A stretch of DNA of 63,833 nt, counting the filler. It is 5 parts of 5 records of this genome, joined end to end, with 100 filler letters (N's around TTAATTAATTAA, not from the genome) between each part and the next. Parts side by side here need not be neighbours in the genome. Positions count along the whole stretch, not along the records: positions 58,642 to 63,833 come from SRR20825010_1563; 4 more parts are not named here. The stretch is one strand, 5' to 3'. A model generated the notes under the pieces. The model saw nothing but the letters and a program-made list of their open reading frames with translations, ran no database searches and was not told where the DNA came from. Positions 58,647-61,445 of this stretch are shown here, one piece after another. Numbering within the stretch: the stretch's first letter is position 1; every line of letters starts with the position of its first letter. Made by a program: the position numbers and the translations under genes.

Positions 58647-61445
58647 ATGCTTACCCCACCCCGCTCTAATTATCCTCTTGACTCCAAAATTAGACCTGAG
58701 TCAAATTCCATGTTCCGTGCAATCACCAGCTCAAACCTACAGGCGACAAAGATCGACCCCAACAACGCGCTGCGCAGAAGTTCTTCAGACTCCGCAATTC
58801 CAAAGATTCTTGGACCTTTGGCCAGCAAGTTAAAAAACATACGCCAGAACAGCCACGCAAACTTGCAGCAAGAGTTGCAAAAAAGCCTGCCGCCCCGGAA
58901 GTTTCAGGAAGTTGTGGAATTAATTGAAAGCATCGAGAGCAACGAAGCAGATTTTGAGCAGCTTCACACGCAGATTAATTCGTTCATTCAGACCAATAGA
59001 AACAGCCCCGAAACGATCGAGAGCGCACTGAAATATTTAAATTGCCAGCTCATGATTCTGAGTGGCGCTGAAAGACATTTGAGAGCCGAAGATATTCCAG
59101 TGAAAGAATCACTGAAACGCGGCCTGAACTCATTGATGGCCAGCGGGCAAAACACAGTCGAATCACTTGTTCTAAGTCTGGCTGGCGCGACAGTGTCACC
59201 AGTTTTTACCGCACATCCAACCAATTTCAACAAACCGGAAGCCAGCCAGATTGTTCTTTCTCAGCTTGGGGACATTGAAACACCGGAAGGCAACACTAAA
59301 ATTTGTCGCGAACTATGGCAAGTACAAGGCGTTCGCGAATCAAAACCCAGCGTACAGGAAGAAGCAAAACAGTTCAGCTCAAACATCAGGCACTTGCACA
59401 GTTCAAGCCGAACCATTCACAAGCGGATTAACTCACACCTCGCAGGCCTGCCCGACAACCTCACACTCATGAAACCCTTGATTGAGGCTGGAAACTGGGT
59501 GGGGGGAGACCGCGACGGAAATCCGAATATTGACGCAACAGTGCTTCAAGACGTTGTGAAAACATTCAGTGAAGCCGCTTTCGATCACTTTGAACAAAAA
59601 CTGTTCAAGATCAAAAACAAACAGCCCGGCAGCATGTGCAATTTGCTGAGCAAGGCAGGCAATGAGCTCAAACTAAACGATTTTCATGAAAAACTGTCGC
59701 GTACTAAAGAACACTTGATCGGCGACGGAGCCCTACCCATGCGCGGCGATCTATATTTGAATGCACATGAATTGCTTCAAGACATCGAAGGACTCGACAT
59801 CAGCCAACTGGATGCTGCAGACCAAAAAACAGTTGGCAAAAAGCTGAACCTGCTTAAACTTGAAGCGGAAAGTATCGGTTTTCATGGTGCCAGTACCGAC
59901 ATTCGACAAAATAGCTCAATGAATGAAAAGACTGTCGGTGAATTAATGCGCCGCTCAGGTGGGCCATCAAACTACGAACAGCTTGACGAATCAGATAAGC
60001 TCAACGTGCTGACGGACTTGCTGACGAATAAAATCAAGCTCGATTTAAAGGATGCACCTTTGGCGAATCAGCCTGAGAACATCGAATTTGATCGGGAAAT
60101 CGCCCTGATCAAAAGTTACAAAACCATTCATGACACTTATGGCGCAAGTGCGCTGAAGAACTGCATCACAGCAAACACAGAGACAATGAGCGACATGCTT
60201 GAAGTGATGCTGCTGCTCAAACATGCGGGGCTGGCTGATGAAAGCAGCATCAAAATGAACGTGGTGCCTCTGATTGAAACCGTGAATGATTTACACAATG
60301 GCCCAACAATTCTGAAAGACATGTTGAATCACCCTTGGTACAGCAATGCGCTTCAAACCAGTGGAAACCTTCAGCAAATCATGATGGGTTATTCAGACAG
60401 CAACCGGTTGGATGGCCCCCTTTCATCAAGCTGGGCTGTGTATGAATGCACTGCAAAAATGCTGGATGTGGCCAAGCAGCATGGGGTGGATCTGCACATA
60501 TTTCACGGACGTGGCGGCACAGAAGCCCGGGGTTCCGGGGAGTCTTATGCGCAGGAAATTGGCTCTACCAATGGTGCCAGCCTTTTGACCGGAATGCGGC
60601 AAACCGAACAGGGCGAGGAAGTGACTGCGAAGTTCGGCACCAAAACCATGTCGCAGTCCAATTTGGCCGAAATGGTTGGGACAACCCTTGAAACCATGGC
60701 TGGCGGTGAAGATAAACAATTGCAAAAGTATTCCAACACAATGGAGCAACTGGCACAGTACGCCCGCGCCAGCTACGCCGAATTGTACACAAACCCCGAG
60801 CTACCCAGCTTCTTCAAAAACAGCACACCCATCGATTTCGTAAGCAAATCCAATGCGGGAAGCCGACCGGCATCACGTGCTACCACATCGGAAGGTGGCT
60901 TGAATCTTGATAAATTGCGAGCCATTCCCTGGGTGGGAGCGTGGTACCAGTCGGGAACTGTCATGCCGGCATTTTTCGGTACCGGGACTGCTTTGAAATC
61001 CTACATTGCGAACCCGGTCAACGGCGAGTCTAAGCCCGTCCAGCGCAGAACCGAACTGAAAGTGATGTACCAGGAGTGGCCATTCTTCAAAACACTCATC
61101 GACCGCACAGCCAGTGCAATGGAAAAAGCGGACATGCAAATTGCCCAGGAGTACGCAAAGCTGGCTCCTGCACAATCGCAACAAGTGTTTGAGGTGATCA
61201 AAGATGAATTTGAGCTTACCAAGAAAATGATACAGAGCATCAAACAATCATCAGAACTAATGAGCCACAATCCCGAGGTAGCCGACACACTTTCCGTGAA
61301 AAAATCGCTCACTCAAGCAGCGCATGCCATGCAAATCGGTTTGTTGAAGGCCCATCAGGAGACGGGACCTAACTTCAAAGACCAATTGGAGAAACCGATC
61401 GTGATGTCAATGCAAGCGATCGCCAGTGCCGGCCGTTTCGGCTAA
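58647..61445 (+). CDS. Divergent phosphoenolpyruvate carboxylase-like protein with N-terminal extension
   Basis: VFTAHPT, WVGGDRDGNP, DIRQ, VPLIET, GYSDS, FHGRGG, TEQGE, GSRP, LRAIPW; start may be 58647 or 58710. Confidence 0.9.
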   Translation: MLTPPRSNYPLDSKIRPESNSMFRAITSSNLQATKIDPNNALRRSSSDSAIPKILGPLASKLKNIRQNSHANLQQELQKSLPPRKFQEVVELIESIESNEADFEQLHTQINSFIQTNRNSPETIESALKYLNCQLMILSGAERHLRAEDIPVKESLKRGLNSLMASGQNTVESLVLSLAGATVSPVFTAHPTNFNKPEASQIVLSQLGDIETPEGNTKICRELWQVQGVRESKPSVQEEAKQFSSNIRHLHSSSRTIHKRINSHLAGLPDNLTLMKPLIEAGNWVGGDRDGNPNIDATVLQDVVKTFSEAAFDHFEQKLFKIKNKQPGSMCNLLSKAGNELKLNDFHEKLSRTKEHLIGDGALPMRGDLYLNAHELLQDIEGLDISQLDAADQKTVGKKLNLLKLEAESIGFHGASTDIRQNSSMNEKTVGELMRRSGGPSNYEQLDESDKLNVLTDLLTNKIKLDLKDAPLANQPENIEFDREIALIKSYKTIHDTYGASALKNCITANTETMSDMLEVMLLLKHAGLADESSIKMNVVPLIETVNDLHNGPTILKDMLNHPWYSNALQTSGNLQQIMMGYSDSNRLDGPLSSSWAVYECTAKMLDVAKQHGVDLHIFHGRGGTEARGSGESYAQEIGSTNGASLLTGMRQTEQGEEVTAKFGTKTMSQSNLAEMVGTTLETMAGGEDKQLQKYSNTMEQLAQYARASYAELYTNPELPSFFKNSTPIDFVSKSNAGSRPASRATTSEGGLNLDKLRAIPWVGAWYQSGTVMPAFFGTGTALKSYIANPVNGESKPVQRRTELKVMYQEWPFFKTLIDRTASAMEKADMQIAQEYAKLAPAQSQQVFEVIKDEFELTKKMIQSIKQSSELMSHNPEVADTLSVKKSLTQAAHAMQIGLLKAHQETGPNFKDQLEKPIVMSMQAIASAGRFG

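Follow-up and report, generated by a model that had tools for sequence, protein, structure and literature searches.

Phosphoenolpyruvate (PEP) carboxylase, or PEPC, is a textbook, slowly evolving housekeeping enzyme, and the question raised by the locus described here is what a strongly divergent copy of it, with a conspicuous N-terminus, does for the bacterium that carries it. The locus lies at the end of a stretch of 63,833 nucleotides made of five joined contigs (henceforth the window), on the last of these contigs (58642-63833, 5192 nt), with the gene, which we will refer to as PPC*, at its very start. A preliminary description made from the letters alone had picked out an open reading frame (ORF) of 932 amino acids at 58647..61445 (+), which is indeed present and in which the His of VFTAHPT is residue 190. 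It had read this ORF as a second, repurposed PEPC paralogue with an N-terminal extension resembling a type III secretion signal, possibly delivered into a eukaryotic or algal partner. We think it likely instead that PPC* is a PEPC paralogue that works in the cytoplasm, is catalytically competent and serves the oxaloacetate node, and that its allosteric control has probably changed. The features of the gene on which this reading draws are the following.

58642..58709, + strand: 5' leader, most likely untranslated, cut by the contig edge; its ATG at 58647 is in frame but spurious, and its DNA is kept in five Limnobacter loci
58710..61445, + strand: divergent PEPC paralogue PPC*, 911 amino acids plus stop codon, assigned by the Pfam PEPcase match (6e-153), the predicted fold and the motifs
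58710..58814, + strand: predicted disordered, Ser/Asn-rich N-terminal tail, residues 1-35 counted from Met22 (model confidence; 37% S+P+N+T)
59214..59216, + strand: codon CAT of the catalytic His of VFTAHPT (His169; His190 in the 932-residue reading), aligned with TAHPT of the E. coli structure 1fiy
61431..61442, + strand: C-terminal GRFG in place of the canonical (R)N(T/S)G, recognised from the C-termini of the clade

Family, fold and start codon of PPC*

PPC* matched the Pfam family PEPcase (PF00311) with a score of 511.4 bits (cut-off 22.4; E = 6e-153), while canonical PEPCs of the genus Limnobacter score around 1000 bits on the same profile. Together with an identity of only 26-30% to canonical PEPCs, this bears out the earlier impression of an enzyme that has drifted strongly (one member of its clade, P0003, is labelled 'hypothetical protein' by one source). 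An AlphaFold model built on 26 clade sequences reached a predicted local distance difference test (pLDDT) score of 86.4 and a predicted template modelling score (pTM) of 0.88. When this model was searched with Foldseek, it matched E. coli Ppc (1jqn and 1fiy, both with probability 1.00) and plant PEPCs with template modelling (TM) scores of 0.79-0.82. PPC* is thus predicted to have the full-length PEPC fold, at a size similar to that of the E. coli enzyme. By contrast, matches to archaeal-type PEPCs were weak and local to the core (26.6 bits for PF14010 and 25.8 bits for TIGR02751, the latter against a cut-off of 146); PPC* is of the long bacterial type and stands beside proteobacterial canonical PEPCs.

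The catalytic roles of the PEPC motif residues come from the structural literature on E. coli. In an alignment of 34 sequences that included canonical PEPCs, the motifs TAHPT, GGDRDGN, DIRQ, LxET, GYSDS, FHGRGG..RG, TEQGE, GSRP and LRAIPW were all invariant. The catalytic motifs, placed on E. coli 1fiy, were also invariant across the 26 clade members; these are 33-72% identical to one another and share about 100 invariant columns, all catalytic motifs included. PPC* has the catalytic His, the metal ligands (Glu of LxET and Asp of GYSDS), the Arg of the Gly-rich loop and the PEP-binding Arg residues in common with E. coli Ppc. More broadly, every PEP-, metal- or bicarbonate-contacting residue that the E. 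coli alignment identifies is either retained or replaced conservatively (substitutions relative to E. coli: Lys546 to Arg and Arg832 to Lys). From motifs and model alike, PPC* would be expected to carboxylate PEP to oxaloacetate.

Outside the active site the picture is different at both ends of the protein. Conservation within the clade is at its minimum in the N-terminal 150 residues and at its maximum in the catalytic core, and residues 1-158 of PPC* could not be aligned with E. coli PEPC by sequence. At the other end, all 29 clade proteins listed terminate in R-[FLHVY]-G, where canonical Limnobacter PEPCs have RNSG or RNTG. We take the change from RNTG to RFG to lie at the position of the aspartate-site residue Asn881 of E. 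coli.

The proposed secretion signal depends on where the protein begins. Only 5 nt separate the ATG at 58647 from the contig joint, and no stop lies upstream; because the contig starts at 58642, the 932-residue ORF is open at its 5' end. Contigs from three public DNA runs (three studies) match positions 58642-61500 at 99% identity or higher (10-13 differences) and extend 621-895 nt farther upstream, so the contig edge at 58642 is an assembly break. The identical protein (100%) on other contigs is called at 911 residues from MFRAITSS, i.e., from Met22 (P0001), and 26 of 26 aligned clade members begin at the equivalent of Met22. Moreover, all five close relatives (L001, L002, L004, L005 and L007) have CTG at the position of the window's ATG. 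In five Limnobacter loci the 68 nt upstream of Met22 are conserved as DNA, yet they contain indels of 1-3 nt and in-frame stops (5 codons before the start in L002; 18 codons before it in L007, with no start codon in between). Considering this, we rejected ATG 58647 as a spurious start; the comparison of sequences sets the translation start at Met22 (58710), which gives a protein of 911 residues with catalytic His169, and the first 21 codons of the 932-residue ORF are most likely an untranslated leader.

The leader is well kept as DNA between TAATTATCCTC and CTCCAAAA (58642-58709; L002:9901-10000, with equivalents in L001, L004, L005 and L007). In the relatives an imperfect palindrome, GAGTGAGCAAGTACTCAC, stands ahead of it, beyond the edge of the window's contig. 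The conserved leader and palindrome could be a putative operator or promoter element.

These results reduce the N-terminal extension considerably. Residues 1-55 of the longer reading had been described as rich in Ser, Pro, Asn and Thr and devoid of a hydrophobic core, and their composition is as stated (44% S+P+N+T; maximum Kyte-Doolittle mean of 0.92 over 12 residues). As the N-terminus of a protein they do not stand, given that residues 1-21 are most likely untranslated. The extension is accordingly shorter than had been claimed, by 21 of 55 residues, and the catalytic His is residue 169 rather than 190; the striking N-terminus of the 932-residue reading is partly a product of the contig edge. 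Counted from Met22, the AlphaFold model has pLDDT values below 50 for residues 1-31 only and a first helix at residues 36-59, starting with PLASKLKNIRQ, just where the helices had been expected to begin (near ASKLKNIRQ). In the model, then, the genuine extension is a floppy, Ser-rich tail of 31-35 residues. The position of the catalytic His had also been compared with His138 of E. coli, a figure consistent with our alignment to 1fiy; canonical Limnobacter PEPCs with a clear start have this residue at 145 and 165, so the offset in PPC* is unremarkable.

The character of the tail is common to every clade member, all of them hydrophilic with 28-62% S/T/P/N/Q within the first 40 residues, while the tail sequence itself is unconserved, and conservation of an RRSxS-type stretch is limited to the closest alleles. 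Such a composition (disordered and Ser/Asn-rich) is compatible with a type III secretion signal but nonspecific. Plant PEPCs carry an N-terminal regulatory phosphorylation domain, and those found among the Foldseek matches (8oj9, 6v3o) resemble PPC* both in fold and in having a short, flexible, Ser-containing extension before the first helix. Unlike them, PPC* has no conserved phosphorylation motif, and its Ser-rich stretch varies freely among alleles.

Distribution and genomic setting in Limnobacter

A library of 1.84 billion representatives yielded 5576 PEPC matches, of which 13 score at least 387 bits, the next one scoring 341. In a tree of PEPCs, from which loci L029-L032 were omitted because they duplicate others, the PPC* clade was monophyletic (stem length 0.94; support of 100 in the Shimodaira-Hasegawa-like approximate likelihood ratio test, SH-aLRT) and placed beside proteobacterial canonical PEPCs. 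Across species genomes, a scan identified 21 PPC* loci, namely 14 in genomes titled Limnobacter, four in Herminiimonas metagenome-assembled genomes (MAGs), one in a Burkholderiaceae MAG, and two in Gammaproteobacteria or Burkholderiales MAGs with Limnobacter-like flanks. Trees were built without L021, whose PPC* ORF was unrecovered, and L018, a 2.4-kb fragment; L003 was omitted from both PPC* trees and retained in the flank tree. Judged from sequence, PPC* is a small, very divergent, lineage-specific PEPC subfamily almost confined to Limnobacter. Our literature searches (Limnobacter with PEPC, judged by title and start of the abstract; prpF with acnD and PEPC) found no paper on it. The same loci, together with a flanking amidase 91% identical to that of Limnobacter sp. 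130, agree with the Limnobacter-like source suggested earlier, and the presence of a canonical ppc and of secretion systems in the source organism is judged here from these relatives.

We then compared the presence of PPC* and of canonical ppc (at least 825 bits) across 26 Limnobacter species genomes, and found the former in 19 and the latter in 13. Both copies occurred in 10 genomes, PPC* alone in seven (including L. litoralis and L. humi), canonical ppc alone in three and neither in four, while two more had ambiguous fragments with regard to having both. The idea of a second, divergent PEPC paralogue therefore holds for the 10 of 19 carrier genomes, all of them close relatives, that also have canonical ppc, and no internal stops were found in PPC* in any of the 19. 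A search for pyruvate carboxylase in five genomes found none, with only its biotin-carboxylase part matched (profile positions 1-465); two of these five (G004 and G005) have PPC* as the sole PEPC found. In L. litoralis and L. humi, where neither canonical ppc nor pyruvate carboxylase was found, PPC* is consequently the only C3-carboxylating anaplerotic enzyme found.

The genomic neighbourhoods of PPC* point in the same metabolic direction. In L007 the gene order is prpR(-), prpB, prpC, acnD, prpF, PPC*, amidase(-), orf140, acnB(-), and the window's contig shares the downstream part of it (amidase, orf140 and acnB). prpF lies directly upstream of PPC* on the same strand in 14 of the 21 loci, with the amidase gene on the other side. 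Adjacency to prp genes is confined to one genus and is absent in L010, L016, L019 and L020. In L010 (positions 2334-12637), a Limnobacter MAG without canonical ppc, PPC* follows mdh and an HpcH/citrate-lyase-like gene and lies opposite sdhCDAB-gltA, a second position at the oxaloacetate node that is independent of the first; the other neighbours are an NAD-glutamate dehydrogenase gene (L016), gltB (L019) and an Orn/Lys/Arg decarboxylase gene (L020). No secretion genes were found beside PPC* in any of the contexts examined (prp/acnB, sdh-gltA/mdh and glutamate genes). Since PPC* is thus found beside prpB-prpC-acnD-prpF and acnB, beside sdhCDAB-gltA and mdh, and beside genes of glutamate assimilation, its placement points to oxaloacetate supply. 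We infer from this a link to propionate metabolism, in which PPC* would supply oxaloacetate at the node shared by the tricarboxylic acid (TCA) and methylcitrate cycles.

Evolutionary rate and rival explanations

Where two loci agree at 85-99% identity in the products of prpC, acnD, prpF, the amidase gene and acnB, their PPC* proteins are only 38-87% identical; in the comparison of L007 with L009, for instance, PPC* is 41% identical and the flanks 89-99%. The ratio of nonsynonymous to synonymous substitution rates (omega) was 0.07-0.16 for PPC* and 0.01-0.10 for the prp, acnB and amidase genes, with PPC* at 2-5 times the flanking genes; the PPC* values indicate overall purifying selection. Given that synonymous divergence (dS) was saturated or undefined for several distant allele pairs, we make no claim of positive selection. 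Nor is the pattern one of simple drift, because no copy is interrupted by a stop, about 100 columns never vary and the catalytic core is conserved. The flank tree joins L. parvus to the MED105/olei group and L. litoralis to that of humi, and the PPC* tree does the opposite. Taken together, the sequences look like old allele classes that have been exchanged at one locus.

Several of our results weigh against seeing in PPC* an ordinary metabolic enzyme. A plain housekeeping role alone leaves unexplained its rate, its nonsynonymous divergence (dN), which is 2-40 times that of the flanks, and the conflict between trees. Specifically, tree distances for PPC* were 1.6-17.2 times those for canonical PEPC in 15 pairs of genomes with both copies, and the PPC* tree rejected both flank groupings in approximately unbiased (AU) tests (p = 3e-5 and 3e-4, for groupings chosen after both trees had been seen). 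On the NCBIfam profile for the PEPC equivalog (NF000584) PPC* scored 549 bits, below the cut-off of 815, which adds to its other differences from canonical bacterial PEPCs (26-30% identity, RFG rather than RNTG at the C-terminus, and evolution 1.6-17 times faster within the genus). As for co-transcription with the prp genes, the gap between prpF and PPC* in L007 measures 215 nt, and a scan of this gap for promoter and terminator consensus sequences gave one of each compared with 0.4 and 0.5 in shuffled sequences, and so no usable signal. Synteny within one genus may reflect inheritance rather than functional coupling, and the count of seven genomes with PPC* only comes from genomes of unreported completeness.

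Part of this could follow from a change in regulation. The RFG C-terminus and the poorly conserved N-terminal 150 residues suggest that allosteric control may have been altered or lost, and its loss would release constraints on the protein surface, which might be part of the reason for the fast evolution.

Whether PPC* could be exported depends in part on the secretion systems of the genus. Possible homologues of a type III secretion system (T3SS) in Limnobacter isolates are noted in an earlier report, which doubts the annotation (PMC4557100). In our profile searches SctC was over its cut-off in four of five Limnobacter genomes, TssC was present in four of five, and SctJ was found in 19 of 26. 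One non-flagellar cluster, in Limnobacter sp. 130 (G003), includes SctJ, L, C, U, T, R, Q, N, D and V.

L022:16375-18998 and L023:3-18998 (G003 contig C3, about 1.588-1.610 Mb): complete-looking T3SS cluster, identified by profile matches

Injectisome genes thus occur in 19 of 26 genomes, but their presence was not associated with that of PPC*, with both PPC* and SctJ in 14 genomes, PPC* only in five, SctJ only in five and neither in two. In G003, some 630 kb separate PPC* from the T3SS cluster, and L. litoralis has PPC* while lacking SctC over the cut-off, SctJ and TssC. Two further observations concern the cluster itself. Within it, 11 consecutive ORFs have no NCBIfam match (L023:1286-11113) and are candidate translocon or effector genes. 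Next to it lies a ZorA/ZorB-like pair (L022:14104-15878; 235 bits against a cut-off of 750 and 337 against 400, both below), and the pair may therefore encode a stator of the MotAB type instead of Zorya defence.

Fast evolution and a disordered tail can be explained in several ways. The explanation given in the preliminary description is that PPC* is a secreted metabolic effector, exported through its tail by an injectisome or a type VI secretion system so as to divert PEP in a eukaryotic or algal partner, with an arms race driving its rate. PPC* does resemble type III effectors in its fast evolution (1.6-17 times canonical PEPC, with alleles discordant with their flanks) and in its hydrophilic N-terminus, which is shared by every clade member and disordered in the model, and the genus has both the T3SS cluster of Limnobacter sp. 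130 and frequent secretion genes (SctJ in 19 of 26 genomes, TssC in four of five). We nevertheless consider an effector extremely unlikely. PPC* has neither linkage to nor co-occurrence with a T3SS (14/5/5/2 as above, with L. litoralis carrying PPC* but none of the three markers, and ~630 kb of separation in G003), and its contexts are metabolic throughout. The residues first taken as the signal are most likely untranslated, and omega values of 0.07-0.16 indicate purifying selection. Furthermore, PPC* is the sole PEPC in seven of the 19 carrier genomes, which speaks directly against the effector claim, and pyruvate carboxylase was absent in all five genomes tested, two of the seven among them. 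In the literature matches listed, judged by title or abstract, a PEPC acting as a type III effector was nowhere described. A broader version holds that an outside antagonist maintains the diversity of PPC* as a hypervariable locus, the enzyme being either secreted tail first, by a type III or type VI system, onto the PEP pool of an algal or other eukaryotic partner, or targeted by an inhibitor from a phage or competitor. Here deep allele classes (38-87% identical) would be swapped between Limnobacter lineages within flanks of 85-99% identity, while the active site stays fixed. We regard this as very unlikely; if it were true, PPC* would be the first known case of an arms race shaping a PEP carboxylase.

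Alternatively, PPC* may be a redundant duplicate whose constraint is relaxed and which drifts while canonical ppc does the work, having no special role of its own. Canonical ppc in 10 of 19 carriers, the absence of PPC* from seven of 26 genomes, an omega 2-5 times the flanking value, the low conservation of the first 150 residues and the score below the NCBIfam equivalog cut-off would all fit. On the other hand, a drifting copy would hardly remain free of internal stops in 19 genomes or keep about 100 invariant columns at 33-72% identity, nor would it be the sole PEPC in seven genomes, and drift leaves the conflict between gene and flank trees unexplained; we therefore judge redundancy unlikely. 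It also seems improbable to us that PPC* is a neofunctionalised enzyme, one whose substrate would be a different enol-phosphate or 2-oxoacid from propionate metabolism or whose role would be regulatory or moonlighting, the tail serving for regulation by phosphorylation in analogy with the plant N-terminal domain. Its fixed place in the methylcitrate locus, its altered C-terminus, the Arg in place of E. coli Lys546 and the RRSxS-type stretch of the closest alleles would suit such a change. Yet the residues contacting PEP, metal and bicarbonate are kept or conservatively changed, the Ser motif is unconserved beyond those closest alleles, and the TCA and glutamate contexts fit ordinary oxaloacetate supply.

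We therefore return to a cytoplasmic PEPC paralogue at the oxaloacetate node as the likely identity of PPC*. Even so the enzyme is unusual, having lost the canonical C-terminal motif while keeping its active site, holding a fixed place between methylcitrate and aconitase genes, and evolving several-fold faster than canonical PEPC, with alleles that do not follow the species. If active, it would be a case study of a central metabolic paralogue turning hypervariable, and its alleles would form a natural set of diverse PEPC surfaces around one core, for probing the regions involved in allostery and oligomerisation.

Make-up of the window and neighbouring genes

The five contigs of the window are joined by N44-TTAATTAATTAA-N44 spacers and have GC contents of 0.347, 0.327, 0.416, 0.352 and 0.499.

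10399-10498, 22975-23074, 40366-40465 and 58542-58641: contig joints, each an N44-TTAATTAATTAA-N44 spacer
58542..58641, no strand: the last of these, an assembly spacer (N44 + TTAATTAATTAA + N44) between two unrelated contigs

To the left of the spacer at 58542 lies an Aequorivita-like contig (GC 0.352) and to its right the Limnobacter-like contig (GC 0.499) with PPC*. One protein of the fourth contig shares 89% identity with an Aequorivita sp. protein, and Aequorivita supplied the top-ranked named matches. The assembly behind the window is thus a mixed bin, in which a contig of 5.2 kb, likely that of a Limnobacter-like betaproteobacterium, was placed with Aequorivita-like contigs. The remainder of the window is therefore uninformative about the organism that carries PPC*, and features near the joints are not to be read across them.

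The stretch with PPC* is present (at least half of its words) in 18 sequencing runs from several studies, with seawater, freshwater, aquatic, algae and soil labels, and we used these habitat labels neither for nor against host association. The only RNA run, a soil metatranscriptome, contained two pieces (239 and 151 nt) at 99% identity or higher; these are contigs for which DNA carry-over is possible, and they are no evidence on the transcription or start of PPC*.

Downstream of PPC*, the contig carries three further features.

61442..63019, - strand: amidase-signature enzyme, convergent with PPC* (Pfam Amidase, 5.9e-89; its syntenic counterpart in Limnobacter sp. 130 is 91% identical)
63082..63504, + strand: orf140, 140 amino acids, of no known family; syntenic in Limnobacter, with copies 32-82% identical
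63554..63833, - strand: 3' end of acnB, cut by the end of the window (Aconitase family C-terminal match; the full syntenic gene in L007 has AcnB domains)

The ends of the PPC* and amidase ORFs overlap by 4 nt (61442-61445). No Pfam, NCBIfam or PADLOC match was found for orf140, and we discarded a reading of the variable island as a defence system, as PPC*, the amidase and orf140 were all without a PADLOC match. In nearly all Limnobacter loci orf140 lies between the amidase gene and acnB, and together with PPC* it makes up a variable islet inside conserved flanks.

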